NCBI GenBank assembly: GCA_020697715.1
Contig: JAEHCO010000004.1
Location: 51,665-115,664, forward strand
Source of the DNA: Methanobacteriota archaeon
GTDB taxonomy: Archaea; Thermoplasmatota; Thermoplasmata; SG8-5; JAGLSY01
Length of the DNA: 64,000 bases
Reading direction: 5' to 3'
Position 1 is the stretch's first letter. Every line of letters begins with the position of its first letter. Of this stretch, positions 1,145 to 51,729 are shown one piece after another. The position numbers were made by a program, and so were the translations under genes. The notes under the pieces are model-generated. The model ran no database searches. It was not told the DNA's origin and saw nothing but the letters and a program-made list of their open reading frames with translations.

Positions 1145-1145
1145 A

Positions 1146-1925
1146 TTAGTCACCTCCTTTATCTTCAAAGTCGCGGTAATTATACATCGTCCTCTTGGTC
1201 ATGATCTCATTCGGACTGAGCCCGTATTTCTTCAAGACCTCGGCATGAGCCTGGGTATGCGGATGGTCCACATATCCTCTGCAAGCCTCGCATTCGCCGC
1301 CATGTGTTGGACATGGCGCTCCACATCCTGCCCGAGCAACTGGACCCATACAGAATCCACCTGTTTCGAACACGCAGATATTCTCATTCTTCTTACACTC
1401 GACACATACCGGGTAGTCTGGTATGGGTAATTTCTTACCTGTTAGAAGTGCCACAAGGACCTTGCCGAACTCATCGGAATCAATGGGGCAGCCAGGTATG
1501 GCAGCGTCCACCTTCACGATCTCGCTCACAGCCCTGTGTTTGATCTGTGCGAAATATGGGTTGGAATCACCCTTGGTTATCTCCGAGCCAGGATGTCTCT
1601 CATAGACCTCGACCTTATTTGCCTCGGCATCCCACTGATTGCCCAGTCTCTGCACACCACCAAGGTGAGCGCATGCTCCGATGGTTATGAGTATGCTGGC
1701 TTGCTCGCGTATCTTCTTTATTCTATCGATATCAATTGGCCTTGCGATGGAACCCTCGATTATGGCTATATCATAATCGTCCGAGTGTTCCTTCATGGCC
1801 TCTCTGAAGGACACTATGTCCACCAGTGCCAATACATCAAGGATGGCCTCCTCCAGGTTCACGACCTGAAGCTGACAACCCTCACAGCTGGCAAAGTCAA
1901 AGAATGCTACTTTGGGTTTACTCAT
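1146..1925 (-). CDS. hyhS: Group 3b [NiFe]-hydrogenase small (delta) subunit
   Basis: FASCEGC, EGS, GACA and GCP proximal-cluster motifs, plus C-terminal PVCxEC...CMGP...C...C...CxxC. Start inferred at MSKPK downstream of GGAGG. Confidence 0.93.
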   Translation of the reverse strand: MSKPKVAFFDFASCEGCQLQVVNLEEAILDVLALVDIVSFREAMKEHSDDYDIAIIEGSIARPIDIDRIKKIREQASILITIGACAHLGGVQRLGNQWDAEANKVEVYERHPGSEITKGDSNPYFAQIKHRAVSEIVKVDAAIPGCPIDSDEFGKVLVALLTGKKLPIPDYPVCVECKKNENICVFETGGFCMGPVARAGCGAPCPTHGGECEACRGYVDHPHTQAHAEVLKKYGLSPNEIMTKRTMYNYRDFEDKGGD

Positions 1926-1979
1926 GTTGGATACCTCCATTTATCATTCCGGTATCTTCAATGAAATCACTTCGCTCTC

Positions 1980-3896
1980 TCATTGAAACGCCTCCGGTTC
2001 ATCTTTAATGTCTTTATAATTGAATACAGGCCCCTCTTTACAGACATATATTCCATTTATCTGGCAGTGACCGCACTTGCCTACACCACATTTCATGCGC
2101 CTTTCCAGAGAGACAATGATATTCTCCTCCGGCATGCCCATGTTAAGCAGATCGCGGTTAACGAACCTGTACATGATCGGTGGGCCAACTACCACAGCGA
2201 TGGTGTTCAATGGATCGAAGGTCACCATAGGCATGATGGTGGTGATAACACCTACCTGTCCATCCCATGACTCGCCCTCTGCACAGGTATCAACGGTCCT
2301 GTGCATTTCGACACCAGGTGTATTCTCCCATTGGGCGATCTCATCCTTGAAGAGAAGCTCACTGGGATCCTTGCAGCCATAGAGGATCATGACCTTGCCA
2401 TAATCAGCACGGTTGTTCAGCACATACTTGATAAGGGAGCGCATTGGAACTATGCCCAATCCACCACCAATGAACAAAATATTCTTTCCCTTCATGTCTT
2501 CCGTGTCAAAGCCAGTACCAAATGGGCCTCTGATCCCGATCTTGTCTCCCTCACTTAGAGAATGAAGCTTATTGGTCAGGTCTCCCACATTCCTCACGAT
2601 GATCTGGAATGTGTTCCCTCCTGGTGGAGAAGATACTGAAATTGGTGCTTCGCCCACACCGTATATGGATACTTCGACGAACTGTCCAGGCACATGACCA
2701 AGGGGCTGGCCGTCATCCAATCCGATCTCGAAGAAGGTCTCGGTCTTGGTGAGTTTCATCATCCGCCTTATGGTCGCGGTCCTTGGTATGTACAATGAAT
2801 CACTGGCAACTATTCCAAGGTCAGATTTCTCTGGCACATGACCCACATTTGCATCAGGTATCGTGTCCATCGTCGCTTCGGCCAGTTTATTGATCAGATT
2901 GACCGGGTCTGCAATGTCAGGAATACATGCACTTGAACATCTTCCACAACCAACACAGGCAACGAAGCCCATGGCATCTGGAAGGTACTTACCCTTCCTG
3001 TTAATCCTGTGGCGATATCTCTCTACGATATCCTCTCTGAATATCTCTCCAGGCGCGACCTTTGTGAAGTCACGGAGCAGGCAGCCATCCCATGTTCTGG
3101 TTCTGACACCAGTGTTGAGATCTAATCCGACCTCGTCATTGACATCATAGCAGAAACATGTTGGACAAACGAGAGTGCAGGAGCCGCATGCCAGACACTG
3201 ATCCGACATCTCCTTCCATACCGAGCTCATGTAATTGTTCGATAGAAGAGAATGCCATGCTTTGGGGCCGACCTTCAAGCCTCTTGTAGCTCTGTCGATC
3301 GCCTCCTGTCGCTTGTTCTTGGCAGCCTCTATCTCCTGAGGCTGTGCATCTCGAGATGTTGCCCTCTGAAGGAGCTCTGCACCTTCAGGAGTTCCCGGAA
3401 GGATAGCATAAAGCACACCCAGGTCTGTAATCATCAGATCGAAGTGCAATTCAGGGGTGCCAGCATCTTTCATCAGGTCCCCATAGAAGGCCTTTTCAGA
3501 GGCCTTCGCGGGCATCACACCTATCAGAAGAGAATTTTTTCTTTTCTGCAAATATATGTCATCAACATTGGTGTCGAAGAAGTATTTGTCCATCTGCTGG
3601 ATCGCTATCAGGTCATATGGATGAACTCCCACAATGACCTTCTTCGTGTCCATAGCTGGAGCAGTGGCCTTCCCAGTCGATATATCGAAATGCATCATTG
3701 TCTCGTACTGAGGCAGATAATACTTCTTGGGTGGAAGAATGGTGACATCATAGTCCAAGCGCAGCTCTGTTGCTGAGTCTAGCGGTCCAAATACGAACTT
3801 ATCTCCTTTGGCCTTCACGCCCTCAACATCCAAAGATTCATCCTGGATCAGGGCATTTATAAAGGCATCGAAATCTTGTTTTGATATTATTTTCAT
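1980..3896 (-). CDS. Fused sulfhydrogenase beta (4Fe-4S, HydB/AsrA-like) and gamma (FAD/NAD(P), HydG/AsrB-like) subunit
   Basis: N-half has CLACGSCTLVCPTCFC and CVGCGRCSSAC. C-half has PGQFV, EAPIS, RGPFG, GGGLG, VVGPP and MKCGVGKCGHC. Confidence 0.9.
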   Translation of the reverse strand: MKIISKQDFDAFINALIQDESLDVEGVKAKGDKFVFGPLDSATELRLDYDVTILPPKKYYLPQYETMMHFDISTGKATAPAMDTKKVIVGVHPYDLIAIQQMDKYFFDTNVDDIYLQKRKNSLLIGVMPAKASEKAFYGDLMKDAGTPELHFDLMITDLGVLYAILPGTPEGAELLQRATSRDAQPQEIEAAKNKRQEAIDRATRGLKVGPKAWHSLLSNNYMSSVWKEMSDQCLACGSCTLVCPTCFCYDVNDEVGLDLNTGVRTRTWDGCLLRDFTKVAPGEIFREDIVERYRHRINRKGKYLPDAMGFVACVGCGRCSSACIPDIADPVNLINKLAEATMDTIPDANVGHVPEKSDLGIVASDSLYIPRTATIRRMMKLTKTETFFEIGLDDGQPLGHVPGQFVEVSIYGVGEAPISVSSPPGGNTFQIIVRNVGDLTNKLHSLSEGDKIGIRGPFGTGFDTEDMKGKNILFIGGGLGIVPMRSLIKYVLNNRADYGKVMILYGCKDPSELLFKDEIAQWENTPGVEMHRTVDTCAEGESWDGQVGVITTIMPMVTFDPLNTIAVVVGPPIMYRFVNRDLLNMGMPEENIIVSLERRMKCGVGKCGHCQINGIYVCKEGPVFNYKDIKDEPEAFQ

Positions 3897-4918: not shown

Positions 4919-5974
4919 GTGATAATGACAGAACTGCTAGAAGATGAATTGAATCTCAAAATTCTGGAGAGTATTTGCACGGGCGAAGGAGTGGAAGTGA
5001 ACATAAGTCACCTTGCAAAGACCCTTGATAGACACAGGAACACTATCAAGTCCCAGATAAATGCCTTGTTCAGTCATAATATCATCAATAAACCAGTTTA
5101 TCCATTCAGTTGGTTGTATCATGAATATCCGATGCTCGCGATCGCAAGAGCCGAGCTTCCGAGAAATAATGATACCGAAAGCTGGTTCAAGAGTGATGAG
5201 CACATCTTCGCAGCCTTCCATGTGAGGGATGAGGAATACAATACATTATTGATCGAGTTCCACAAGGACATACATGCCTATGGCCAGTGGAAAAAAGAGA
5301 TAGTCAATACCAATAAGATCCCGCAGAGAGACAGAAGAAATTCAGCCCATGTTCTGGTATTCAGCAATAAGGATATCATAAAGAACAAACCTTACTCTCC
5401 AATATTCATAATGGAGAAGAAGTTCAAGGAAACTGGCAAGCTCAGTCTCAATGAATACAATATCAATAATCTATGTTTCAATATACTCAAGATGCTGGTC
5501 CAGGGAGATGGGATAAGAACCAATGAGAATATGTTGGCCCAGAAGCTGGATGTCCACAGAAAGACCATCGAAAGACGCCTCAGATCATTGAAAGAGGCAG
5601 GCATCATCTCGGATCCTGCATGCAGGTTCCCAAATTTCTTCGTACCACCAGACCAGATACTTGTTTATTATCTGATGGAGGTCAAGAGGACCAAGTCAAA
5701 GATATTAAAGGCAATTGAGAATGATGATCATATACCGATGGCGTGGGAAGCTGGCATAGGCAGATATAATTTCCTTCTCTTTGGTGTGTTCCCCAGCGTG
5801 GAGGACCATTTCGATTGGGAAGACAAGTACGACCACAGATTCAAGGAATGTATAGGGGCCATGAAGAAGATATACCTCTCACCCAGGATGGCCACTCATA
5901 TCGATCAGCAGAAGATATCTCACGGCATTATAAAGAATATGAAGAAGAAAAATGAAAAGGGATCGGATGAGTGA
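4919..5974 (+). CDS. Internally duplicated wHTH/Lrp-AsnC-like transcriptional regulator (paralog of 14186-15238)
   Basis: Two HTH-like segments (LAKTLDRHRNTIKSQINAL; LAQKLDVHRKTIERRLRSL), each followed by a RAM-like alpha/beta region. Confidence 0.7.
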   Translation: MIMTELLEDELNLKILESICTGEGVEVNISHLAKTLDRHRNTIKSQINALFSHNIINKPVYPFSWLYHEYPMLAIARAELPRNNDTESWFKSDEHIFAAFHVRDEEYNTLLIEFHKDIHAYGQWKKEIVNTNKIPQRDRRNSAHVLVFSNKDIIKNKPYSPIFIMEKKFKETGKLSLNEYNINNLCFNILKMLVQGDGIRTNENMLAQKLDVHRKTIERRLRSLKEAGIISDPACRFPNFFVPPDQILVYYLMEVKRTKSKILKAIENDDHIPMAWEAGIGRYNFLLFGVFPSVEDHFDWEDKYDHRFKECIGAMKKIYLSPRMATHIDQQKISHGIIKNMKKKNEKGSDE

Positions 5975-6016: not shown

Positions 6017-6439
6017 TTATTGCTTACCACGATTATCCTGGATCTCTATCAAAGCATAGCGCAGGTTGCATCGCAGTTCCTTACTGATATTCTTACCATC
6101 CATTTTCGAAGCGATCATTTCCATTGCTGGCTCGCCGATGTCTATCAATGCCTCGATGGACCTCCATTGGACAGACGATTCATCATCCACCAGAGCTTTT
6201 ATCAATGGTTCTATAGCACATGGATCTCCAATATGACCAAGGGCCTCGGCAGATCTGTATCTCACTGTCGCATTCGTGTCATGCAATAGTGCCTCTGCCA
6301 GCGGACCAACAGCTGATCCACCTACCCTCTCAAGAGAATTGCGCGCACTTTGTTGCTCCATGCCAGTTCCTGTTCCGCAGGCCTGGATGAGATCAAGGAT
6401 ATCATTTGCTTCATACGAGTTCTGTGACACACTCTCCAT
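6017..6439 (-). CDS. HEAT/PBS-lyase repeat protein
   Basis: VRYRSAEALGHIGDPCAIEPLIKAL and VQWRSIEALIDIG repeats. ATG overlaps the hyhL stop (TGATG at 6439). Confidence 0.8.
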   Translation of the reverse strand: MESVSQNSYEANDILDLIQACGTGTGMEQQSARNSLERVGGSAVGPLAEALLHDTNATVRYRSAEALGHIGDPCAIEPLIKALVDDESSVQWRSIEALIDIGEPAMEMIASKMDGKNISKELRCNLRYALIEIQDNRGKQ

Positions 6440-7764
6440 CAGTTCCCCTCCTTTTTTGTCTCGGAGCCATTGACCCACTCGACATTCAGGTAGTGGGTGG
6501 AGCAGCTTATGCACGGATCATATGCTCTAACGAGCATCTCGAGGTTCAGCTCGATCTCCTTTTCAGGTCTGTCAAGGAGAGTTGGAGCGAAGGCCGCGAA
6601 ATCCTGGTTGATATTGTTGTGGTTCATATTTGTCGGAATTACACAGTTAGCCTTTACACAGTTCCCCTTGTCATCATATTCGTATTCATGGAAGAGAAGA
6701 CCTCTTGGAACCTCCACAGCACCCACACCGCGTCCTGCCTTTGGCGTGACCTTTGGTGTTGGCTCCTGCTTCATTCCACCGTCCAATAGTTCATCGATTA
6801 TCCTGACTGAATCCTCGATGGAGTGAACGAATTCAACGAATTGAGCCACATTGTTCATGAAAGGATTTGGATTAACTGGCTTGAGTCCGAACTTGTCAGC
6901 CCATTCCTTGGCCAGCGGACTAAGCTTATCGGCATTCAGGTTGAACCGGGCCAATGCTCCAACCATGTATGAGTCGCGTTTATTCTTGGTGAACTTGGCT
7001 GTGGAGTATGGAACTACGAACTCATTCACAATGGTCTTGTAAGCATCCGCATGCTGAGGCTCCTCATCGGTTGATCCGACCATTCCATCATACAGGGCAT
7101 ATTCGTCATCCGTGACCAGAGCGATATATTCCGTATCCCTCTTGAAATCCGGAAGAGCTCCTGCATTGGCAAGTATGACCTCGCCGACCGCATTGCCTGT
7201 TGGAACCATGTCCAGCAAGTTCTGTCTGATATCCTTCAGTGCATATGGAGATGGTGTCTTGTATATACCGCCTGGCACCAGATTGGTAGGATGTGTCGTC
7301 CTGCCGCATATCAGGTCGGACATCAAGTTCGCCTGCCTGTGGAGCTTGACAATAGCCAAAACCTCATCGGGGTTTGAACCGACGAGTGGCACCACGCTTC
7401 CAACTCCAAAGAGATCTGGAGCTACAAGGTATCCGACATGGAGTATGTGGCTCTGAAGATTCTCGGCATGGATAGCCAGCCTTCTAAGTTTCTGGCTCTG
7501 CTCGGATATCTCGATGTCCATCGCGGCTTCAGTGGCTTTCAATGAAGCCAGTGTGTGACCGATTGAACAGATACCACATATCCTGGACGTTATTGGAGCC
7601 AGCTGATTGTATGGCTTACCTCTGACGAAGGATTCAAAGAGACGTGGGGCCTCGGAGACCTGCCACTGTATCTTCTCAATGGTACCGTCCTTCGCATTCA
7701 GGACGATGTTTCCATGTCCCTCCACTCTTGTCAAATGCTCTACATTAATGTTTATTTCACTCAT
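6439..7764 (-). CDS. hyhL: Group 3b-type [NiFe]-hydrogenase large subunit (second copy)
   Basis: TRVEGHG, RICGICS (L1) and DPCISCSTH (L2), followed by a cleavable C-terminal extension. Confidence 0.95.
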   Translation of the reverse strand: MSEININVEHLTRVEGHGNIVLNAKDGTIEKIQWQVSEAPRLFESFVRGKPYNQLAPITSRICGICSIGHTLASLKATEAAMDIEISEQSQKLRRLAIHAENLQSHILHVGYLVAPDLFGVGSVVPLVGSNPDEVLAIVKLHRQANLMSDLICGRTTHPTNLVPGGIYKTPSPYALKDIRQNLLDMVPTGNAVGEVILANAGALPDFKRDTEYIALVTDDEYALYDGMVGSTDEEPQHADAYKTIVNEFVVPYSTAKFTKNKRDSYMVGALARFNLNADKLSPLAKEWADKFGLKPVNPNPFMNNVAQFVEFVHSIEDSVRIIDELLDGGMKQEPTPKVTPKAGRGVGAVEVPRGLLFHEYEYDDKGNCVKANCVIPTNMNHNNINQDFAAFAPTLLDRPEKEIELNLEMLVRAYDPCISCSTHYLNVEWVNGSETKKEGN

Positions 7765-7820
7765 ATTCGACCCCTCCATTTCATTCCGGGCTCTTGAATG
7801 TGCTCAGTTCGTTCGCACAT

Positions 7821-8501
7821 TCAAAATCCCTCCTGAGTCATGATCTTTTCAAGCATCTCCATCGAATCATAGGAGAATACCTTGGCTGCTACAAGTATCT
7901 CTTCTTTTGTGAAGCCAGCATCCTTGTATGCCTTCAATCCGAATCTGAGGATATCCTCATTGGCCATTATCGAATGACAACCCTCACACCTGTATCCTTT
8001 TCTGGTACAGTAAGCATTACAGTTGGCATATGTCAATGGCCCCAGGCAAAGCTCTCCTCTTGTCAGAAGACAACCTTCACCCTGATTCGGGCATTCGGCA
8101 CATACTGGCACTCCATTAATATCATAATCCCTGCATAGCTTGGCGAATTGGCATTCGCCGCTGACTGGGCAATCCCTGCACTTCTGCACATGCTCCGACA
8201 GCAGAAGTTCGACAACTGTCCTTCTTGCCTGATATACAGCATCACTGATAGTAGATACAGACAATCCAGAAGAAACAGGCATCGTACAACTTGGTTGAAG
8301 CCCAGGTCTGCCACCTGCTTTCACCTCGACCAAGCAGAGTCTACAAGATCCGATCCTTTGTTCAGGGAACAGTGGATTGAAGCAAAGAGTTGGTATGTCA
8401 ACCGAGTTCGCTCTTGCCACATCCAGTACTGTCTGGTTCGGCTCTCCAGCATAGTCCTTTCCATCTATCACTATGTTTATTTTGAATGAAGTCGTTGCCA
8501 T
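7821..8501 (-). CDS. Chimeric Fe-S subunit: HydA/NuoG-like N-terminal [2Fe-2S] and His-ligated [4Fe-4S], fused to the C-terminal Fe-S domain of a NiFe small subunit
   Basis: IPTLC...SCRLCLVEV...PSC and HxxxCxxCxxxxxC (HVQKCRDCPVSGEC), then PVCAEC...CLGP...C..YC...CEGC. Confidence 0.8.
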   Translation of the reverse strand: MATTSFKINIVIDGKDYAGEPNQTVLDVARANSVDIPTLCFNPLFPEQRIGSCRLCLVEVKAGGRPGLQPSCTMPVSSGLSVSTISDAVYQARRTVVELLLSEHVQKCRDCPVSGECQFAKLCRDYDINGVPVCAECPNQGEGCLLTRGELCLGPLTYANCNAYCTRKGYRCEGCHSIMANEDILRFGLKAYKDAGFTKEEILVAAKVFSYDSMEMLEKIMTQEGF

Positions 8502-11500
8502 TATTCATCACCTCCTTCGCTTTCCGCACTGAGATCACACCTCAGACACCTGGATGCCTCTTTCTTGGCACATTCAGGGTCCATGCACATGACAACTTCC
8601 TCGAAGCCGCATGTTCTGTCATCAGCGTTTAGTTCTTTCACGCCCTGCCTCTGCATTGGTTCTGCATTGTCTGGTTCGACATTGGAATAGTTGGTATTGT
8701 TCATCTTTTCCAACTGGGCCAATCGGTCATTGCCACCCAAGAACAGATCGATGTTCCTGGCCGCCCTCTTACCATCAGCCACCACGTCGATCACACTTGC
8801 AGGTCCAGTTACCGCATCTCCACCAGCGAATATCTTCGGGAACCAAGCTGAGCTTCCTGTTCCTTCAACAGGTATCCACCTTGAATCGCCCACGATATTC
8901 ATTCCACCAGCGAAGTCAGTATCCAATTGCTGTCCAATGGCATTGACCACACGGTCGGCCCTTATCTCGACAGTCTCATCGGTAGCGACAGGTGATCTGC
9001 GACCCCACTTGGTGAAATCGCCCATGACATTCTTTCTGAAGACAGCTCCAACGACCTTTCCGCCTTCCACGATGAGTTTCTCGGGTGCGACCAGGAAGTG
9101 ATATTCCACACCTTCCTCTCTGCAGTGTTCGATCTCCTCATCATAAGCTGGCATGTCATCCTCTTCTCGTCTGTAGCAGACGGTGACCTTGGTTCCCATT
9201 CGAATTGCAGTTCTGGCAACATCTATGGCAACGTTCCCACCGCCTATCACGAGAATGCTCTGACCCAGATCGACCGACTTGCCACTATTCATTTCCTTGA
9301 GCAGCTGAAGACCTGGAAGCACGCCTGGAAGTTCCTCGCCTTCCAGCCCCAGCTTCGTGTCCTTCTGGGCTCCGATGGCCAGGTATACCGCATCATTATC
9401 ATTGAGCAGTGTTTCCATTGTTATGTCCTTACCCACACTAGTATTTGTTTTGGCCACAACACCCAGGTCGATAATGTCCTGGATCTCTTTGTCGATGATC
9501 TCATGTGGCAGCCTGTACTTTGGAATTCCATATCGTACCCAGCCGCCCATTTTTTCTTGAGCTTCATAGATGGTTGGCTTGTACCCCATCCTTCTCAGGA
9601 AGTAGGCTGCTGAAAGACCAGATGGCCCTCCACCCACAATGGCGATGGTCTTGTCCACATCATCAAGTGTGGATATCTTTCCAACACCTGCTTTGAAAGC
9701 CTCATCTGAAGCATATCTCTTGAGCTCACGAATGGCTATTGGCTCATCCAACTGCGCACGCTGGCATCTTCCTTCACAAGGGTGCTCACAGACCCTTCCA
9801 CAAATGGATGGGAAGGGGTTTGCCTCTCTATTGACATCATATGCCTCTGCGTACCTGCCTTCAGTTATCAATTGTATGTAGCCGGGCACATTGGTACCTG
9901 CTGGGCAAGTGTTCTGACATGGCGATTTGAACATGGCCGCACAAACAGATGCATCACATATCTTGTTCTCAATGTGGTCCACATACTCGTTCATGAAGTA
10001 CTTCATGGTGGTCATGATCGGATTGGGTGCTGTTCCTCCAAGGGCGCAAAGTGCACTCGCACTAACTTGCTCTGAAAGGCTCGTCAGTACCTCAAGGTCT
10101 TCCATCACACCTTCTCCGTGACATATCTTCTCAAGTATCTCCAGCAATCTTCTTGTTCCGATCCTGCAAGGAGTACATTTCCCACATGATTCCTCGGCTG
10201 TGAAAGTGAGGAAGTATCTTGCGACATCCACCATGCAGGTGTCCTCATCGAGAACCACCATTCCACCAGATCCAACAATGGAACCCAGTGTTTTCAGGTT
10301 ATCATAATCCACGGGGATATCCAGGTGTTCCTCGGGTATACAACCTCCAGATGGACCACCGGTCTGAACGGCCTTGAACTTGCGACCATCCATGATACCG
10401 CCGCCGATCTCGTAGATGATGTCCTTCATCGGAATTCCCATTGGAACCTCGATAAGACCTGCGCGGTTCACTTTTCCTACTAAGGAGAAAACCTTGGTTC
10501 CAGTGCTTTTCTCAGTCCCCATGGTGGAGAACCATTCCCCGCCCCTCTGAAGGATCATAGCGATATTGGCCCATGTCTCGACATTGTTGATATTCGTAGG
10601 CTTGCCCCAAAGACCACTGACAGCAGGGAATGGAGGTCTTGGCCTTGGTTCGCCTCTCTTACCCTCGATGGAGTTTATGAGCGCGGTCTCTTCACCACAA
10701 ACGAATACACCAGCTCCCTCACGGATATGTATCCTGAAGCTGTAGTCCATTCCAAAGACACGATCACCAAGTATACCATGTTCCTCTGCAGAAGCAATAG
10801 CTTTCTTCAGTTTTTCGATGGCCAGTGGGTATTCAGCACGGATGTAGATGTATCCGTCCGTTGCTCCCATTGCGTATCCTCCAATTATCATACCTTCGAT
10901 AACACTGTGTGGATCTCCTTCCAGAACTGCACGATCCATGTAAGCACCAGGATCTCCTTCATCAGCATTACAGATGACGTATTTCACGTCACCTGGAGCC
11001 TTGTGACAGAACTCCCATTTCAAACCAGTTGGGAAACCTGCTCCACCTCTTCCGCGGATCCCGGAAGTCTTGACCTCGCCGATTATCTCTTCGGGTGTCA
11101 ATTCGAACAATGATCTGTAAGCAGCTCTGTAACCGCCCCTGGCTATGTATTCCTCAATATCTTCAGGAACAACAATTCCACAGTTCCTCAAGGCCACCCT
11201 TATCTGCTTGGCAAAGAAAGGTAGATCCTGATATTTTGGGATACCATCATAGACATCGGTCTCGGCAATTACACCATGCTCACACTCGGATATCTCGTCT
11301 GTAAGCTGGCACATTGCAAGCTCAGTTACTGGTTCCTCACCAACAAGGTGCTCATCCAGTATCTTCTTCAGTTTGTCAATGTCCATGTCCGAATAGGTAA
11401 CACGTGGCTTTCCAGGTAATTTGATGTCGACCAATGGTTCCGCGTGGCACATACCGATGCAACCAACGGAAACGATGTCCGCATGAACATCGTTCTCATC

Positions 11501-11653
11501 CAGATACATCTCAGCATATTCCTTGAGCGGCATTCCGCCAGCTGCTATTCCACAGGTGGCCAATCCAAATATCACCTGGGGTGTTCCATTATCCATGGAC
11601 TCCTTACCCCTCTGGGCCATGTCCCTGAGGTGGACTATCTTGCTTATTTTCAT
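8501..11653 (-). CDS. HydB/NuoF-like diaphorase subunit with N-terminal thioredoxin-like [2Fe-2S] domain, fused to a GltD/NfnB-like FAD/NADPH domain
   Basis: GRGGAGFPTG, NADEGDPG, CGEET, GGPSGG and ESCGKCTPC; then CQNTCP, CGRVCEHPCE, GGGPSG and GGGNVA...YRR. Confidence 0.9.
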   Translation of the reverse strand: MKISKIVHLRDMAQRGKESMDNGTPQVIFGLATCGIAAGGMPLKEYAEMYLDENDVHADIVSVGCIGMCHAEPLVDIKLPGKPRVTYSDMDIDKLKKILDEHLVGEEPVTELAMCQLTDEISECEHGVIAETDVYDGIPKYQDLPFFAKQIRVALRNCGIVVPEDIEEYIARGGYRAAYRSLFELTPEEIIGEVKTSGIRGRGGAGFPTGLKWEFCHKAPGDVKYVICNADEGDPGAYMDRAVLEGDPHSVIEGMIIGGYAMGATDGYIYIRAEYPLAIEKLKKAIASAEEHGILGDRVFGMDYSFRIHIREGAGVFVCGEETALINSIEGKRGEPRPRPPFPAVSGLWGKPTNINNVETWANIAMILQRGGEWFSTMGTEKSTGTKVFSLVGKVNRAGLIEVPMGIPMKDIIYEIGGGIMDGRKFKAVQTGGPSGGCIPEEHLDIPVDYDNLKTLGSIVGSGGMVVLDEDTCMVDVARYFLTFTAEESCGKCTPCRIGTRRLLEILEKICHGEGVMEDLEVLTSLSEQVSASALCALGGTAPNPIMTTMKYFMNEYVDHIENKICDASVCAAMFKSPCQNTCPAGTNVPGYIQLITEGRYAEAYDVNREANPFPSICGRVCEHPCEGRCQRAQLDEPIAIRELKRYASDEAFKAGVGKISTLDDVDKTIAIVGGGPSGLSAAYFLRRMGYKPTIYEAQEKMGGWVRYGIPKYRLPHEIIDKEIQDIIDLGVVAKTNTSVGKDITMETLLNDNDAVYLAIGAQKDTKLGLEGEELPGVLPGLQLLKEMNSGKSVDLGQSILVIGGGNVAIDVARTAIRMGTKVTVCYRREEDDMPAYDEEIEHCREEGVEYHFLVAPEKLIVEGGKVVGAVFRKNVMGDFTKWGRRSPVATDETVEIRADRVVNAIGQQLDTDFAGGMNIVGDSRWIPVEGTGSSAWFPKIFAGGDAVTGPASVIDVVADGKRAARNIDLFLGGNDRLAQLEKMNNTNYSNVEPDNAEPMQRQGVKELNADDRTCGFEEVVMCMDPECAKKEASRCLRCDLSAESEGGDE

Positions 11654-12129
11654 TCAGCAACCTCCTCGGTCTTGTAAGAATCAAGTATCTTTTGAAGGCC
11701 GCCTTTCTTCACACGACCATATGTCTCTTCATCTATCATGATAACAGGCGAAAGACCACAGCAACCCAGACATCTGACAGACTCTAGTGAAAAGAGTCCA
11801 TCTTTTGTGGTTCCGCCGGGTTTGATCTCCAGAATATCTTCCAATTCCTGTGCGATACCAGAGCCACCTCTGACGTGGCACGCTGTACCACTGCAGACCT
11901 TGATGGTGTGCTTTCCAGGCGGATCAAATCTGAATTGTGGGTAGAAAGATACAACACCATAAAGCTCAGTTAATGAATATTCACTGTTCTCGGAAACATA
12001 TGTGAGATATTCTTCTCCGACATATCCAAGAATTTCCTGAATATTCTGAAGGATAACGAGCTGCGGATCATCTATATTTGAATAAGTATCTAGTATAGTA
12101 TCTATAATGAATTTGTCTTTAGCTTCCAT
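11650..12129 (-). CDS. HydC/NuoE-like [2Fe-2S] subunit
   Basis: VCSGTACH...RCLGCCGLSP motif; ATGA overlap with the downstream gene. Confidence 0.92.
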   Translation of the reverse strand: MEAKDKFIIDTILDTYSNIDDPQLVILQNIQEILGYVGEEYLTYVSENSEYSLTELYGVVSFYPQFRFDPPGKHTIKVCSGTACHVRGGSGIAQELEDILEIKPGGTTKDGLFSLESVRCLGCCGLSPVIMIDEETYGRVKKGGLQKILDSYKTEEVAE

Positions 12130-12185
12130 TCAGAATCCCTCCATTTTCATTACGGGATTTTTAATGAAATCGCTTTGCTCTCTCA

Positions 12186-13967
12186 TTAAAACTCACCTCC
12201 TTTTATCTGCTTGTCATAAGCCTCGATTATCTGCTTGGAGAACCAAACTGGCCCTTTGGACTCGCCCTTGAAATTCCTCAGGTAGTCCCTGCGCTGATCA
12301 ATAATATCTATCGAAGTAGTTGGTATGGTTCCACCACCAGTTAGGCAACCGTGGAAACATGGGTAAAATTCTACCACATTGTATCTTTTAGCGATGTCCT
12401 TTGTCAGGTATTTACTAGCCTTTGCCAGATCCTCGATTATGAGGGCATTGAAGAATCCTTCTTCACTGTCGAAGGCCATTTCGTGAACATAATCCTCAAG
12501 AGTGGTCACAGCCAGCCTGGCATCGAGATTATTGAACTTTCTCATGTAAGCCGTCTGTATTATTGCCAATGAGTAAGCATAGTCACTGCTCGCACCCTTG
12601 ACAAACACACTGGACAAACCAAGCTCGCAATCGAACACACCATCAGCAGGATCATGGAAATCAATGTCCACGCCCTTCTGCTTGAGAAGCCTTGGAAGCT
12701 CTCTGGCGGTCAAGACCGCATCGATCTTCGAATTGCCCTTGTGGACGATACATGGCGACAGAAGGATTATCTTCAAAGTCTTCTCTCCCTTAGTGTATCT
12801 CTCACCCAGAACATCCAACATCATCTGCTCAGGCGATGACACTTTCTGCAGATTCTTCTTGAATTCAGGATGGAATTTTCGGATATACGAATTGGCACTT
12901 GGACACCATGATGTGAAGACCATGTCGTCGTTCTCGCTAACATAGGTTCCCTGCGCTGCCAATGAAAGATAATTGAAGTGGGTGAAATCCACAACCCTGT
13001 CGGCTCCCAGTGATTTTAATGACGCTATGAGACTTCCCAATGCCTCGCCAAAGTCATCTCTGTCTGTTGGTAGGACCTCCATGGCTGCTGCCGCAGCCGT
13101 GAGATCGATGGCGAACACAACAAAATTGTTGGGATCATCAAGTAATCCAATAGCCTTCTCCACATCGGAATGTTCGGAAAAAGCACCGACCGGACAGTTG
13201 ACCAGACACTGTCCGCATGATATGCATTTATTATCATCCAGGCCCTTATTGAAAGGCGTGGATATGATGGATTCATTTCCTTTATTTGTCAATCCAATGG
13301 CATGAATATCCAGGATCTCATTGCACACGATATCGCAATGCCTGCACAGTATGCATTTCTGAGGATCATATTGGATGATGGATCTTGTGTCGGCCTCCAT
13401 TTCCCTTGCGGTAACACCGAATCTCAGATCCAGATTCTTCCTTGGGGCCATCGTGGTAAGACGCCTTATGTAGTACAGGACCTGTTCTTTCCGGACTGGA
13501 CATCCACGGATATAGAAATCAACATCCACGACCTCATTGAGCTTCTTTGTCGGGAAGACGTCGAAATACTCATTGTTCGCAATGTCCGCATCCGCATATA
13601 CTTCTTTAAGATTCTCCGCATCTGGCCATTGGTTCCTCAGTTTATTGACACAACCAGTTGTGGCACAATCACCAAGAGCGATGAGGATCTTGGCATTGGC
13701 CCTGATCTCTTTCAGTCTTTTCTCATCAACTGGCCTGTTTATCGAACCCTCAATGAAGGCTATATCGTAGTCATCGGAATGTTCCTTCATGACCTCACGA
13801 AATGAGACTACCTCCACTGTATCCAAAAGCTCGAGGATATCCTCCTCAAGATTGGCTATCTGCAGTTCACATCCTTCACAGCTTGCAAAATCAAAAATAC
13901 CTACCTTATACTTAGGTGCGGTTTGGGCACTTTTGACACTTTCTACATCAGAAACTACCATAGTCAT
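12186..13967 (-). CDS. Hybrid subunit: NiFe small-subunit N-domain, 2x[4Fe-4S] ferredoxin and [FeFe]-hydrogenase H-cluster-like domain (group F-like)
   Basis: FASCEGC/GDCA/RGCP, then CILCRHC and CISCGQC, then TSWCP, SPCIVHK and EFYPCFHGCLTGGG, which align to the FeFe L1/L2/L3 motifs. Confidence 0.82.
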   Translation of the reverse strand: MTMVVSDVESVKSAQTAPKYKVGIFDFASCEGCELQIANLEEDILELLDTVEVVSFREVMKEHSDDYDIAFIEGSINRPVDEKRLKEIRANAKILIALGDCATTGCVNKLRNQWPDAENLKEVYADADIANNEYFDVFPTKKLNEVVDVDFYIRGCPVRKEQVLYYIRRLTTMAPRKNLDLRFGVTAREMEADTRSIIQYDPQKCILCRHCDIVCNEILDIHAIGLTNKGNESIISTPFNKGLDDNKCISCGQCLVNCPVGAFSEHSDVEKAIGLLDDPNNFVVFAIDLTAAAAAMEVLPTDRDDFGEALGSLIASLKSLGADRVVDFTHFNYLSLAAQGTYVSENDDMVFTSWCPSANSYIRKFHPEFKKNLQKVSSPEQMMLDVLGERYTKGEKTLKIILLSPCIVHKGNSKIDAVLTARELPRLLKQKGVDIDFHDPADGVFDCELGLSSVFVKGASSDYAYSLAIIQTAYMRKFNNLDARLAVTTLEDYVHEMAFDSEEGFFNALIIEDLAKASKYLTKDIAKRYNVVEFYPCFHGCLTGGGTIPTTSIDIIDQRRDYLRNFKGESKGPVWFSKQIIEAYDKQIKGGEF

Positions 13968-14185: not shown

Positions 14186-15238
14186 ATGGCCGATATGCTA
14201 GAAGACGAACTTTCTCTCGCAATACTCGAAAAGATATGTGATGGTGTCGGAGTGAGCATCAATGTAAGTGCTCTGGCCAAAAGCCTCGATCGCCACAGAA
14301 ATACAATAAAATCACAGGTGACCGCACTTTTCGAGAATGGAATATTGACAGCCCCCTACTATCCTTTCACCGGACTTTTCAAGGAACGACCACTTTTTTC
14401 CATTGTCAGGGCAGACCTTCCGAGGCAGGCCAGGATCGACAAGTTCTTGGCAGAGGATGATACAATATTCGCCTCTTTCAAATCATGGGATGATGGTTAT
14501 AACACATTGCTCTTCGAATTCCACAAGAGCATGTCCTCATACTTCTACTGGAAAGAGAAAATAGTGGAGGACGATAAGTTACCTCCACTAGAAAACCGAT
14601 TCCCTGCCGATGTAGTATTTGTCAATAATGAACTTTTATTCAAATATGATCCAAATTCCAGCATAGCGTGCATGGATAAGAGATTCGATAAAGATGGAGA
14701 AATAATACTCAATGGCTACAAGTTGAATGAACTTGGATTCAATATCCTGAAAAAATTATTGGTAGGAGAAGGCATCAAGACCAATGAACATCTGCTGTCG
14801 AAGGAACTGGACACCCACAGAAAGACCATTGAGAAAAGGATAGAGGCCTTGACACAGGCGAGACTTATTACACCGCCTGTTTGCAGATTCCCTCAATTCT
14901 GCATACCACCAGGGCATGTGTTTGTCGTGAGCTTCATCAGGATCGATAAGTGCAAGGAACAGATCATCCAGTATATTCGGGATGATCCATGTGTGCCGAT
15001 CGCCTACAGGGGTCATGTGGGCAAATACAACCTACTATATTTCGGAGTCTTCCCCAATGTGGAGGAGCACTTCAACTGGGAGGAGATCCTGCATGCGAAA
15101 TTCAAGGACGAGTGCTTCGGAGTAATGAAGAAAATATACTTGTCTGAGAATATGACGGTTTCTATTGATAGAAAGAAGGTATCATTTGGAGTTCTGAAGG
15201 AGAAAAGAGCAGAACTGGAAGCCACGAAAACAAAGTGA
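14186..15238 (+). CDS. Internally duplicated wHTH/Lrp-AsnC-like regulator (paralog of 4919-5974)
   Basis: LAKSLDRHRNTIKSQV and LSKELDTHRKTIEKRI segments; colinear with 4919-5974. Confidence 0.7.
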   Translation: MADMLEDELSLAILEKICDGVGVSINVSALAKSLDRHRNTIKSQVTALFENGILTAPYYPFTGLFKERPLFSIVRADLPRQARIDKFLAEDDTIFASFKSWDDGYNTLLFEFHKSMSSYFYWKEKIVEDDKLPPLENRFPADVVFVNNELLFKYDPNSSIACMDKRFDKDGEIILNGYKLNELGFNILKKLLVGEGIKTNEHLLSKELDTHRKTIEKRIEALTQARLITPPVCRFPQFCIPPGHVFVVSFIRIDKCKEQIIQYIRDDPCVPIAYRGHVGKYNLLYFGVFPNVEEHFNWEEILHAKFKDECFGVMKKIYLSENMTVSIDRKKVSFGVLKEKRAELEATKTK

Positions 15239-15698: not shown

Positions 15699-18404
15699 TT
15701 ATTCTCGATTAAGTATATCAAAGAATTCACTGATTATGGATTGTGCAGAGTGATAAGCAGTATCTGGCTCAAGTTTTCGATTTGTTTTACCATTTTGTTC
15801 AAGAAATGCCACACTCAATGCCTGATCAGAGAGGAAATAATACAATGGCTTTGATTGAATATTTATGCGATTACTTCGTAATTCATTGTAAAACAAAGTA
15901 ATAACATCCGCCTCCATCCTCTTAATCGATATCTTGTTCTTTCCAAAAAAATTAAATTGTTTCTCAGATAATTTTAATTCATCCGATATACAAGTAACAG
16001 CTATTTTAAGAGCCTCCCAAGATGAATTAATCCGATGCTCAGGAGAATTTATTTTATTAGAAGCATCAATTAGATTGGATTCCATCAATAAAGGGCCAGA
16101 AATTTGACCCTCTTCTAATTCTATTTCCACTTCTTTTTTTTCGTCTGTTTTAAGTTTTTTTCCAGGAGGTCTTATCGGATTATGAGAGAAGCCATTGAGA
16201 AATTGTTTTGAATTTATGCTATCATATTCTAAGCCCTCTAAAAAAGATCTTACGTATTTTTTTAATCTGTATTTAGTTACATGAGTATTTTCAAATGAAC
16301 CCATAGTAATTCTTTCATCAATCCTTTCAAATATTATAGCTAGAGACCCAGAATACATTGAAAAAGGAATTTCCATGTCAATAAATTTTAAATTAAAACG
16401 ACCGCCTTTTTTAGCCTGAATTCTTTGAATAGAATTAATTAATATTTCAAAGTAGGGAGATATGTCTTCTTTTTTCCTATCAACATCCCTTTGAAAATCA
16501 TAAATAAGTTGCATCCCTTTGGCTAAGTCAGGGCTAATTTTTGATATTTTAATTGCTGCTCTCGCCCTTGCTGTTTTCAACCCCATCGGAAAAATATTTG
16601 AAACAAAGACCTCATCAATTTTTTTTACTTTACTTTCAGCAGCATGGCAAAATATGTGTTCGGCTTTGCCTAAGATTTCACCAGGTAAGCCCATACTTAC
16701 TTCACGAATATTATCGCTAGCATCTGTAGTTATTAATTCATCGGGATCTTTCCCATTAGCCTCAATTCGTTTTGAAATTAGATCCCATGTTTCTTTATTG
16801 CTAAATGGTTCAAGTTTCATCCCCAATTCAGGCCTTAAGTACCTATAAGGTTCTTCAGATAACATTTCAAGCCAATCAATAGGAATGCAGAGAAGAACCA
16901 TCCAACGTTCCTGAGCATTGTCTGTAAAGTTTTGAAGCAATTTTAAAAAATCTTTAATTATTTTTCTTTCATCTTCATCCTTGTATTTTAATCTATCAAG
17001 ATTATCCAAGAATATTACAACATTCTCGTCCTTAACATTTTCAAAAATTGTATTAAATTCTTTTTTCTCTAAAGATGTTTCTGAGTCACCGGATAGTGAT
17101 TTGGCTATTTTTTTTGCCTCAGTAATTACAAAATTATATAAATCTAATCCACTTAGAATTGGTCTAATTGTGTTTAATGTTTCTATATAAAATATTTTGC
17201 ATCCATTTGATTCTAAAACATCTTTCATAACTCGATGGAGAGTGGTTTTACCAGCTCTTCTTTCTGCAATTATTAGTTTTAACCCACCACTTTGGCTTTG
17301 TGCTACAGATAGAGTTCTAGAAATTATTGAATTCATAGAATCTGTTTTAATAAGTAGTTCTGAACCTTCACCAAGTATACGATCTGACCATGGGTTCCCA
17401 TTGAAACCCCAATAAGACATCCAATTGTCTCTATTTGAAACATCTATGACTTTATCTCTTATTTTTGTATCATCTACATCAACCATTAACTCTAATACAT
17501 CAGGAGGAGGTTTCTGTAAATTCTCCTGCAGTTCTGACGTAATATTATTGTTATCAAAACTAATAACAATTCCATTTTTTTGCAATGGGATTTTTATTAG
17601 GTCAATTTCAGAAGAAATTTTGTTAATAATCATAGCCTTTAATTTTGATGGCACACCTCCAGGCAAATTAGGAATGCGAAGACCCAGTGTAATTATCCCC
17701 TCATTAATATTTAAATATTTAGTATAATAATGAATATACCAATGTAATTTTGAATCTGGAGGGATAGCTATCAAGTCTAATTTGTTGATTATTACTCTCT
17801 CCCACGTTCGATCCAATTCATCCCCAAGACGCAATAAACATAATATTAAACCAACTCTAATCTTACCTCCTGAAATTTTTTTTATCAATGTTAAATCATT
17901 ATCTGTGACAGGCCCACTGTGTTTTTCACATATCCAAGCTATTTCTTTAGCAATATCTGCAAAAACAGTCTTGTTTAAATCAATAGTTAAAGGATTTTCT
18001 CCATTAATCAATCCAGCCGAAAGTTTGATTAAATTCGCTGAACTGATTGCGTGTTTTTTTCTTACTTCAAGAGGTTTCTCTGCTAATTCTGCAATGATTT
18101 GCCTTTTATTTACTACTCCCGAATCTTTTATGTTGAACATCATTCCAATATCATGAAGCAAGCATGAAGATGCTAAACATAGTATTTCATAATCAGAAAG
18201 TTCTTCAAACGTATCCATCTTTGATTCTAATATTTTATCAACGATTGAAATTACTCGCAATGAATGACCAATTGAATGGTCTGTGAATATCTCACTAGAT
18301 GTTCCTAATATATTTCTTAATCGAACTTCAAGATTATCTAATTCGGTTTTTTTATCTTTTTCAAGATCATTAAGAAAATTAGCCATTACCATACATTCAC
18401 CCAC
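15699..18404 (-). CDS. HD-CE-like phosphohydrolase fused to a P-loop (AAA+/STAND-like) ATPase with helical C-terminus; candidate defence gene
   Basis: TDHSIGHSLRV, LLHDIGM, LRLGDELD and HWYIH; then WGFNGNPW, AERRAGKTT (Walker A variant) and IFLDNLD (Walker B). Visibly much more AT-rich than its neighbours. Confidence 0.7.
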   Translation of the reverse strand: MGECMVMANFLNDLEKDKKTELDNLEVRLRNILGTSSEIFTDHSIGHSLRVISIVDKILESKMDTFEELSDYEILCLASSCLLHDIGMMFNIKDSGVVNKRQIIAELAEKPLEVRKKHAISSANLIKLSAGLINGENPLTIDLNKTVFADIAKEIAWICEKHSGPVTDNDLTLIKKISGGKIRVGLILCLLRLGDELDRTWERVIINKLDLIAIPPDSKLHWYIHYYTKYLNINEGIITLGLRIPNLPGGVPSKLKAMIINKISSEIDLIKIPLQKNGIVISFDNNNITSELQENLQKPPPDVLELMVDVDDTKIRDKVIDVSNRDNWMSYWGFNGNPWSDRILGEGSELLIKTDSMNSIISRTLSVAQSQSGGLKLIIAERRAGKTTLHRVMKDVLESNGCKIFYIETLNTIRPILSGLDLYNFVITEAKKIAKSLSGDSETSLEKKEFNTIFENVKDENVVIFLDNLDRLKYKDEDERKIIKDFLKLLQNFTDNAQERWMVLLCIPIDWLEMLSEEPYRYLRPELGMKLEPFSNKETWDLISKRIEANGKDPDELITTDASDNIREVSMGLPGEILGKAEHIFCHAAESKVKKIDEVFVSNIFPMGLKTARARAAIKISKISPDLAKGMQLIYDFQRDVDRKKEDISPYFEILINSIQRIQAKKGGRFNLKFIDMEIPFSMYSGSLAIIFERIDERITMGSFENTHVTKYRLKKYVRSFLEGLEYDSINSKQFLNGFSHNPIRPPGKKLKTDEKKEVEIELEEGQISGPLLMESNLIDASNKINSPEHRINSSWEALKIAVTCISDELKLSEKQFNFFGKNKISIKRMEADVITLFYNELRSNRINIQSKPLYYFLSDQALSVAFLEQNGKTNRKLEPDTAYHSAQSIISEFFDILNRE

Positions 18405-18546
18405 TTCTCCCAGAGATATAAAGCTTTAAGCTTGATAAGTTTAACGGGAACATAATTCAAAATATTATTTTGTATTATCTTTAGTTCAGCATATTATTAT
18501 TATTTTGGATAGAATCACACAACAACCCTCGCACTTACAAAGCCCT

Positions 18547-19215
18547 GTACCAATTCCTTTTTATATTACACAAAAGCACGCACCAGCGTTTTTTTCTTTT
18601 AAAGTTTTCTGCGCTGGTTCGGGCTCATCGAATCAAAACCAAGGTTTTGACAAAATATATGCGCTCGGGAAATATAGCCAGCTCATCTAAAAAAGAAAAA
18701 AATACAGTTAAGAATCAAACCCATTATATGTGTTTGATAAAATAATTGCGTAGGATCAATAGGTAAAAGTCGCAATTAAAAATAAGAAACTCGCCCTCGC
18801 CTGCTCGAAAACCAAGTCGAATACAAAACACCGCACCAGGAAGTTTTTCTTTAACCTCGCTGTGCTCTTAGTTCGAATCGCTATGCTTCTCGAACTAATT
18901 ATTTGCGAAGTTTACGCAAATAAGGGCTCACCTTCCAAAGAAAAAGTTCCATTCAAAAGAAACTCAGGTGAGCCTGCTCGCTCGTCATATGTTGATAATT
19001 GCTCTGAATACAAAACACCGTACCAATTCCTTTTTATATTACACAAAATCGCGCACCAGCGTTTTTTTCTTTCAGGGTTTTCTGCGCTGGTTCGGGCTCA
19101 AAAAGAAAAAAATGCCGTTAAATAAGAAACTCGCCCTCGCCTGCTCGAAAACCAAGTCGAATACAAAACACCGTACCAATTCCTTTATATATTACACAAA
19201 AGCGCGTACCAATTC
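18547..19215 (+). repeat. Three tandem units of a structured non-coding repeat element
   Basis: 53-bp identical repeat at 18781-18833 and 19121-19173. 43-bp repeat with 1 mismatch at 19006-19048 and 19159-19201. Recurrent CACCAG, T-tract, GGCTCA, A-tract, AAGAAACTC and GCCTGCTCG blocks. Confidence 0.85.
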
Positions 19216-24718: not shown

Positions 24719-24809
24719 GACCAGGTTATTTCATTATGATCATTTTAGTATTTTTCATTTTACTATTTTGCCAAAACAATTCTATAGTTACTGATAATTG
24801 TATAAGTGC

Positions 24810-51600: not shown

Positions 51601-51729
51601 GTAATAAATGATATGGCCAGGAGCCTATAAATAATTTGTCCAATCATTATCATAATTTATAAAATTATAATGAAATGAACTTGAAAGTATTATGAAAAAC
51701 TAGAGACCAGACCGATTTCAACGGCCTGG

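Follow-up and report, generated by a model that had tools for sequence, protein, structure and literature searches.

The stretch of DNA analysed here (the window; 64,000 nucleotides, positions 51,665 to 115,664 of the forward strand of contig JAEHCO010000004.1, from an assembly labelled Methanobacteriota archaeon and placed by GTDB in the Thermoplasmatota) carries a gene in which a [NiFe]-hydrogenase small subunit is fused to the C-terminal half of an [FeFe]-hydrogenase HydA protein. Judged from its sequence, the product is probably the HyhS-HydA subunit of a cytoplasmic five-subunit hybrid hydrogenase, whose composition resembles the electron-bifurcating Bfu and HydABC(SL) enzymes. Its H-domain retains the [FeFe]-hydrogenase fold and all four cysteines that ligate the H-cluster, and its di-iron pocket is lined by a different set of residues, fixed across the clade, with Trp in place of the proton-relay Cys. 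We favour, with about even confidence, a [NiFe]-driven enzyme of the bifurcating type in which the H-domain holds a cubane but no di-iron subsite; the strongest alternative is a genuine di-iron subsite in an unusual setting. The gene and the parts of its product that carry this argument are as follows.

12186 to 13967, minus strand: HyhS-HydA fusion gene, 593 residues (open reading frame, Pfam, PDB matches and AlphaFold2 model)
13461 to 13880, minus strand: [NiFe] small-subunit (HyhS/HydS-like) domain, residues 30-169 (PF01058, E = 8e-25)
13179 to 13379, minus strand: ferredoxin-like domain with two [4Fe-4S] motifs, residues 197-263 (Pfam Fer4 families)
12288 to 13130, minus strand: [FeFe]-hydrogenase H-domain with remodelled [2Fe] pocket, residues ~280-560 (Pfam, PDB alignments, model and Foldseek)
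12894 to 12914, minus strand: L1 motif TSWCPSA, residues 352-358 (HMMER and MAFFT alignments)
12738 to 12758, minus strand: L2 motif SPCIVHK, residues 404-410, with S404, C406, H409 and K410
12330 to 12371, minus strand: L3 motif EFYPCFHGCLTGGG, residues 533-546, with Y535, P536, C537 and C541, then GGG
13104 to 13106, minus strand: codon of D288, an Asp at the position of CpI A230, in the AP(S/A) loop beside the proximal cyanide

The small-subunit domain has cysteines for the proximal [4Fe-4S] cluster only (C30, C33, C101 and C156), and HMMER aligns it to the sulfhydrogenase delta subunit, to MvhG and to the small subunit of the Acetomicrobium mobile NiFe enzyme (7t2r_E, with residues 19-170). 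The ferredoxin-like domain, with eight invariant cysteines (205, 208, 211, 215, 248, 251, 254 and 258), aligns contiguously with both the F-domain of HydA (8a6t) and FrhG (3zfs_B). With the ligands of the H-domain [4Fe-4S] cluster, the fusion carries cysteine sets for four cubanes: the proximal one, two of ferredoxin type and that of the H-domain. Pfam Fe_hyd_lg_C (PF02906) matches residues 308-545 (E = 1e-25), and HMMER aligns residues 180-558 to the solved HydA proteins of T. kivui (HydA1, 8a6t, E = 8e-45) and T. maritima (7p5h, E = 2e-37) and to CpI (E ~1e-28). An AlphaFold2 model of the fusion, for which 78 homologues served as input, has a mean predicted local distance difference test (pLDDT) score of 87, with 90-98 in the H-domain; its top Foldseek matches are HydA of TmHydABC (E = 1.7e-26) and CpI (~3e-24), so that the H-domain fold is recovered. 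The protein falls far below the NCBIfam cut-offs for [FeFe] hydrogenases (TIGR02512 and NF040763; 146 bits against 406 and 170 against 765), in line with source names of its homologues such as '4Fe-4S binding protein'. Neither a PAS domain nor an extra C-terminal cluster was found in the fusion by Pfam. We reject a chance match or a pseudogene: the reading frame is unbroken, the model scores well and the 'odd' residues do not vary within the clade.

An earlier note on this DNA had located the three H-cluster motifs on the minus-strand open reading frame 12186-13967, and their coordinates proved correct. In the HMMER alignments, L1, L2 and L3 coincide with TSCCPS, MPCIGKK and EVMACPGGCMSGGG in T. 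kivui HydA1 and with the corresponding CpI motifs, and three MAFFT alignments place them identically. The alignment to CpI, which the note had named as a check, thus puts the residues where it had claimed. The correspondence below, from CpI to the window protein, was derived by hand from the HMMER alignment coordinates.

L1: C299 to W354; C300 to C355
L2: M353 to S404; C355 to C406; K358 to H409; K359 to K410; E361 to N412
L3: M497 to Y535; A498 to P536; C499 to C537; C503 to C541

All four cluster ligands are present as C355, C406, C537 and C541 (HMMER and MAFFT), as the note had stated. In L1, the canonical TSCCP with its proton-relay Cys is replaced by TSWCP: W354 (codon 12906-12908, minus strand) takes the place of C299, next to the cluster ligand C355, and the note was right to assign Trp to this position. 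It was also right that the L3 Met is Tyr; of the canonical ExMACxxGCxxGGG, the cysteines and the GGG are present, and M497 and A498 have become Tyr and Pro. In L2, the canonical MPCxxKxxE reads SPCIVHKGN, with S404, H409 and N412. The note had described the L2 Lys as replaced by His and shifted by one. His does occupy the K358 position, but canonical enzymes have two consecutive Lys residues here, so the change is the loss of the first, cyanide-contacting Lys (K358) with retention of the second (K359), not a shift.

The proton path of group A consists of C299, E279, S319, E282 and R286 (PMC11803613). None of these five residues is retained in the window protein, which has W354, Q339, Q374 and Y342 at the first four positions; R286 lies in a CpI insertion without a counterpart in the HMMER alignment. 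The equivalent of K358 in CrHydA1, K228, is reported to be conserved to an extreme degree; H-cluster assembly fails in its variants, and maturation was blocked when E231, with which it forms a salt bridge, was disturbed (PMC9516953, which also describes the role of the AP(S/A) loop). Both K358 and its partner E361 are missing here. The pocket also seems to be bulkier: side-chain volumes, added by hand from the aligned residue strings over 11 securely aligned pocket positions, sum to ~260 cubic angstroms above group A. The lining positions follow the CpI structure, and the cavity is described here through residue sizes. By our own rough estimate, ~260 cubic angstroms is close to the size of the di-iron subsite. 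CpI positions F417, G418 and V423 were dropped from the comparison because HMMER and MAFFT differ by ~5 residues there.

These substitutions are not peculiar to one protein. A word-indexed search gave ~86 full or partial fusion homologues, and an exhaustive hidden Markov model (HMM) search of 1.84 billion representatives added further, more distant ones. Conservation was counted in an alignment of 78 homologues from archaeal and bacterial assemblies, 53 of a short class (~495-510 residues) and 25 of a long class (~570-590 residues, including the window protein). C299 is replaced by Trp and A230 by Asp in 78/78, and the invariant residues of the H-domain are D288, W354, C355, P379 (P324 in CpI), C406, C537, C541, G544 and G545; K410 (K359) and P536 (A498 to Pro) are nearly invariant. 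The K358 position holds Lys in none of the 78: long-class members have His, Tyr or Gln (one Leu) and short-class members Leu or Met (one His). M353 has become Ser or Thr, I268 has become Phe or Tyr, and M497 is Tyr or Phe in 73 of the 78; Q325 is Trp in all 53 short-class members. The E279 position is Gln in the long class and Asp in the short class, and E282, S319 and E361 are not retained. The earlier note had spoken of lost second-shell residues, which holds in so far as the group-A set and its proton path are gone. The shell has not decayed, however; in its place stands a different, fixed complement with many aromatics and an acidic residue, in which W354 and D288 are invariant across the clade. 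As an observation apart, the window protein is alone among the 25 long-class members in having Leu at the CpI P231 position (L289, 13101-13103); 23 of them have Pro.

The short class lacks residues ~459-520, that is, a helix and strands of one H-domain lobe, as well as the C-terminal helices, and keeps the operon and the invariant residues. A short-class model has pLDDT 88-97 over most of the H-domain, and its best matches are still HydA and CpI. Compared with the window protein, the H-domain is 53% identical in long-class and 26% identical in short-class members, whereas the small-subunit domain holds at 68-69% and the [NiFe] large subunit HyhL reaches 57-82%; by these identities, the H-domain is the fastest-evolving part of the complex.

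In the GTDB species representatives, 22 fusion loci were found, and every protein has S-W-C in L1 and (Y/F/V)PCxxxCxxGGG in L3. The closest genome locus, with 96% amino-acid identity, is from a metagenome-assembled genome (MAG) that bears the label Methanobacteriota, and further close loci carry a Thermoplasmata or a Methanomassiliicoccales label. The short (~495-residue) Trp-type fusion with its whole operon also occurs in MAGs with bacterial labels (loci L007-L014 and L016-L018: Balneolales, Cyclonatronaceae, Gammaproteobacteria and Nealsonbacteria). In Planctomycetota-type contigs (L087-L089), the fusion has N-terminal receiver and histidine-kinase ATPase domains and lies behind a two-component cascade. 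The bacterial occurrence may reflect errors of MAG binning. In a neighbour-joining tree all Trp-bearing fusions group together, with one Phe variant nested among them. A second fusion clade of 430-500 residues lies apart (P0113, encoded at L081 and L082; P0116; P0119-P0165). P0113 has Cys-Cys in L1 and the gene order HydC, HydB (558 residues, no GltD domain), HydD, HyhL, fusion; other members have no L1 Cys and thus three of the four cluster ligands. The exhaustive search also returned P0112, a predicted protein of 4122 residues with seven canonical L1 motifs, six of them TSCCASW at an exact spacing of 444 residues and the seventh, TSCCAGW, beyond them; this is either a true polyprotein of tandem hydrogenases or the product of faulty assembly.

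The fusion gene heads a five-gene minus-strand operon (6439-13967) in the order fusion, HydC, HydB, HydD, HyhL. The other members, the gene that follows them and hypF are listed here.

11650 to 12129, minus strand: HydC, NuoE-like thioredoxin-like [2Fe-2S] subunit (PF01257, E = 4e-43; position conserved in all related loci)
8501 to 11653, minus strand: HydB, 1050 residues, NuoF-like FMN/NADH module with a GltD/NfnB-like domain (PF01512, PF10589, PF14691 and PF07992)
7821 to 8501, minus strand: HydD, [2Fe-2S] domain and NuoG N-terminal [4Fe-4S] domain (PF13510 and PF10588; conserved in related loci)
6439 to 7779, minus strand: HyhL, group-3 [NiFe] large subunit (PF00374)
6017 to 6514, minus strand: HEAT-repeat open reading frame, sharing 76 nt with the 3' end of hyhL
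24798 to 27062, plus strand: HypF, [NiFe] maturation carbamoyltransferase (Pfam HypF_C_2, zf-HYPF, Sua5 and acylphosphatase)

The same gene order is found in the 22 related loci wherever the contig reaches far enough, and in further contigs. HyhL has both CxxC pairs (RICGICSIGH and DPCISCSTH), followed by a C-terminal extension, and its [NiFe] site is intact, so that H2 chemistry is possible there. HydD is the N-terminal part of a split HydA/BfuA, and HydD, HydC and HydB form a NuoG/E/F-type module with an additional GltD-like NAD(P)H domain. This GltD/NfnB-like part of HydB combines a pair of [4Fe-4S] motifs with an FAD/NAD(P)H-binding region, and HydB as a whole is conserved in related loci. 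The place of the HEAT-repeat frame is taken by the HycI maturation endopeptidase in seven relatives (L005, L007, L009, L014, L016, L084 and L087), and no HycI-like sequence was found across the 64-kb window despite the C-terminal extension of HyhL.

Pfam found no hydE, hydF or hydG among the open reading frames of at least 140 residues in the window, and a motif scan of the window together with 31 related loci (477 kb) found none either, so the earlier statement that the window holds hypF and no hydE/F/G stands. The sole radical-SAM-like reading frame in the scan (L019) was rejected as HydE or HydG, as its N-terminal sequence looks to be of AmmeMemoRadiSam type. Near several of the loci, hypF or hycI lies next to the operon. 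The absence of maturase genes near 32 loci is weak evidence in itself, because such genes need not be linked.

A cubane-only H-domain appears to us the most likely state, given a rebuilt pocket with neither K358 nor a proton path. The comparison with CrHydA1 argues for it, since variants of K228 fail to assemble the H-cluster and here both members of the salt bridge are gone. The same reading is favoured by the greater bulk of the pocket, by the short class with its missing part of the second lobe and by the fast evolution of the H-domain; the distribution of maturation genes, with no [FeFe] maturases and with hypF or hycI near several loci, points the same way. There is also a precedent in the terminal cluster A5 of NiFe-HydABCSL (Feng et al. 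2022), and the authors who described the hybrids found two hydrogenase modules within one complex 'peculiar' (Greening et al., Cell 2024, PMC11216029). Under this reading, electrons would pass from the NiFe site to the proximal cluster, through the two ferredoxin clusters to HydD and on to the flavin centre of HydB, as in NiFe-HydABCSL. The H-domain cubane would lie on a side branch as the counterpart of A5. The di-iron pocket would have been rebuilt with the invariant Trp and Asp and with aromatics at three further lining positions, leaving no cyanide-anchoring Lys and no proton path. The role left to the H-domain would be structural, or one of electron storage or partner docking, and not that of a second group-A-like hydrogenase. 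The earlier note had proposed a NiFe enzyme on a repurposed FeFe scaffold; the intact large subunit, the nearby hypF, the published description of group F/3f and the parallel to NiFe-HydABCSL all support that part, and its interpretation as a whole is partly supported.

Several observations weigh against a cubane-only H-domain, and most of them speak for the first alternative: that a genuine [2Fe] subsite is present in the H-domain, though in an atypical setting, and makes this domain a second H2 site, slow, biased or sensory, like the HydS proteins of groups C and D. In this case, the clade would use a proton route of its own, for example via the invariant D288, and the Trp would shape the pocket. 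Two HydA-HyhS fusions from Thermoplasmata SG8-5 are reported to have evolved H2 once [2Fe]adt was added to E. coli lysates, Th1 at 5% of the CrHydA1 level and Th2 weakly, and both were called bona fide hydrogenases (PMC11216029). Th1 and Th2 very probably belong to the Trp clade, as they share the lineage label and the HydB type and every Thermoplasmata-type fusion that we found has the Trp. On the other hand, neither protein could be purified, the activity comes from lysates only, group F is without reported spectroscopy and one of the two proteins was barely active (PMC11216029). A second observation is that the group D protein TamHydS, which lacks C299, M353, M497 and four of the five proton-path residues, still binds the H-cluster and uses another proton route (PMC11803613), so that these residues are dispensable for H-cluster binding. 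The retention of all four Cys, of P324 and of the GGG motif around the cluster, invariant throughout, fits a di-iron subsite too, as does the confident prediction of the H-domain fold in both length classes. The receiver/histidine-kinase ATPase fusion of the Planctomycetota-type contigs is compatible with a regulatory link. D288 could be a substitute proton relay, and the invariance of W354 and D288 shows selection on the site, which would suit a working active site and a filled pocket alike. The filling of the pocket is itself inferred from residue sizes at the lining positions of CpI. As for maturation, Greening et al. noted that most of these archaea lack HydEFG and allowed for a distinct native cluster or an unknown archaeal assembly route (PMC11216029).

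Against the di-iron subsite stands above all the absence of K358 from 78/78 homologues, as group-A K228/K358 variants cannot assemble the H-cluster (PMC9516953). An invariant acidic residue in the loop facing the proximal cyanide and bulky aromatics at the C299, I268 and M497 positions are further obstacles, and the loss of part of one lobe in the short class, the lack of maturase genes nearby and the fast evolution of what would be a catalytic core also tell against it. On balance we regard a genuine di-iron subsite as a possibility to be taken seriously, if a somewhat doubtful one. Should the pocket bind the subsite after all, it would be the most deviant H-cluster environment known, with Trp for the relay Cys and no anchoring Lys, and a useful natural case for gauging the contribution of the protein shell.

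We think it improbable that the pocket binds something else, such as another metal, an organometallic group whose synthesis bypasses HydEFG, or else a small substrate on a site-differentiated cubane, for a chemistry other than that of H2. The strict invariance of W354 and D288 in archaeal and bacterial members at only ~40% overall identity is what this idea would explain: the Trp/Asp pocket might then be a working site of a new kind, and the hybrids might couple the [NiFe] site to a second, non-H2 chemistry, a notion to which we give little credence. In the loci examined, the operon comes with neither a candidate maturase nor a conserved accessory gene, and in the short class a large share of one pocket side is gone. 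We also know of no precedent, which counts against it. Finally, an evolutionary relic retained merely as a scaffold for folding or assembly, without a functional cluster, could account for the fast evolution of the H-domain and the large internal deletion of the short class, but is very unlikely, since invariance of the four Cys, the GGG, W354, D288 and P379 in 78 archaeal and bacterial sequences is not expected of a cluster-free relic.

If the H-domains of the clade do lack the di-iron subsite, as we favour, the complexes are [NiFe] enzymes of the bifurcating type that keep a fossil H-domain, and counts of archaeal [FeFe] hydrogenases that rest on Cys motifs only need revision.

The surroundings of the operon hold further genes. 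Two paralogous proteins of ~350 residues (14186-15238 and 4919-5974, both plus strand; 47% identical, with weak helix-turn-helix matches) flank it, and they may be regulators of the operon, because homologues adjoin it in L001, L002 and L005. Beside the upstream one lies a gene for a protein of 901 residues in which an HD-CE domain at the N-terminus is combined with an archaeal-type ATPase domain (15699-18404, minus strand). Between this gene and the next reading frames, a non-coding stretch (18530-19210) contains overlapping families of direct repeats, 24-92 nt long, in 2-3 copies each, with 71-100% identity and a spacing of ~150-470 nt. A second [NiFe] hydrogenase of sulfhydrogenase (3b-like) make-up occupies positions 1-3896 (minus strand). 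Its large subunit runs off the start of the window and has 71% amino-acid identity to the HyhL of the hybrid; its small subunit has 264 residues (1146-1940), and a protein of 638 residues combines a Fer4_22 4Fe-4S dicluster with an FAD/NAD-binding part (1980-3896). By this identity, the two [NiFe] large subunits of the window are close paralogues with wholly different partner subunits. No tRNA was found in the window. As regards expression, cold-seep DNA runs gave word matches of only 4-5%, and no RNA runs matched.

The published 'hybrid' hydrogenases of archaea unite a group F [FeFe] with a group 3f [NiFe] hydrogenase (Greening et al., Cell 2024, PMC11216029), and the window complex is by all sequence indications a new member of this family. 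As in the published hybrids, a [NiFe] small subunit and an H-domain stand in one open reading frame (PF01058, PF02906 and PDB alignments), the genes for HyhL, HydB, HydC and HydD are contiguous with it, the host is of Thermoplasmata type, the four H-cluster Cys are present (C355, C406, C537 and C541, with the CxxxC of the published screening filter) and hydEFG is absent. The published structural model, of Thermoplasmatota UBA147, has a HydB modelled partly on glutamate synthase 7MFM (PMC11216029), and this template matches the GltD-bearing HydB of the window. The family link thus rests on architecture, host type and the GltD-bearing HydB. Selection of the published candidates relied solely on HMM score and the CxxxC motif, and the main text of PMC11216029 makes no mention of Trp at C299 or of the loss of K358. 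The hybrids were presented as two joined hydrogenases and as evidence for an ancient link between the superfamilies, with the sense of two H2 sites left open. New here are the fixed substitutions, the short class, the bacterial assemblies and the parallel to cluster A5 of a solved enzyme. The clade reaches beyond the published archaeal scope, into Balneolales-, Cyclonatronaceae- and Planctomycetota-labelled assemblies, and a second, separate fusion clade exists. A search for follow-up literature on the biochemistry of group F found nothing beyond citations.

Nar1 and NARF, to which the earlier note had likened the site, have the H-domain fold and keep four Cys, with a [4Fe-4S] cluster only and no di-iron subsite. 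The likeness is a functional analogy: these eukaryotic proteins act in cytosolic Fe-S assembly and are unconnected with hydrogenase subunits, and membership of the Nar1 family is rejected, as the nearest relatives of the fusion by both sequence and fold are bifurcating group-A HydA proteins. The putatively sensory enzymes of groups C and D (TmHydS and TamHydS) resemble the fusion in that the relay Cys, both active-site Met and most of the proton path are replaced, and the change of M353 to Ser is shared. They differ in having a small residue at C299 (Ala in TamHydS) where Trp stands here, and in that their H-cluster binding has been shown by spectroscopy. For groups C and D, PMC13104023 describes a C-terminal [4Fe-4S] cluster of atypical kind, associated with a Per- (PAS-type) domain. 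Pfam finds neither in the window protein, and unlike those enzymes it is fused to a [NiFe] small subunit and encoded with a [NiFe] large subunit.

A parallel for the favoured reading is NiFe-HydABCSL of A. mobile, in which electrons pass from the NiFe site through a single small-subunit cluster and the HydA clusters to the flavin centre of HydB; its terminal [4Fe-4S] cluster, A5, lies where the H-cluster would be and is not part of the main electron route (Feng et al. 2022, PDB 7T2R). In both systems, a HydABC module of NuoE/F/G type is wired to a [NiFe] large subunit that has its two CxxC pairs and to a small subunit whose only cluster is the proximal one; in the window, HydB and HydC are recognised as NuoF- and NuoE-like by their domains (PF01512, PF10589 and PF01257). 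The arrangement of the subunits differs. A. mobile has one HydA chain, a separate HydS and a HydA C-terminal domain without an H-cluster motif, whereas in the window HydS is fused to the C-terminal half of HydA, the N-terminal half is the separate HydD, and HydB has the extra GltD-like domain. The C-terminal domain is here a recognisable four-Cys H-domain, and the HydA of A. mobile aligns to the fusion by its ferredoxin part only. If the di-iron subsite is indeed missing, the complexes of this clade look intermediate between FeFe-HydABC and NiFe-HydABCSL.

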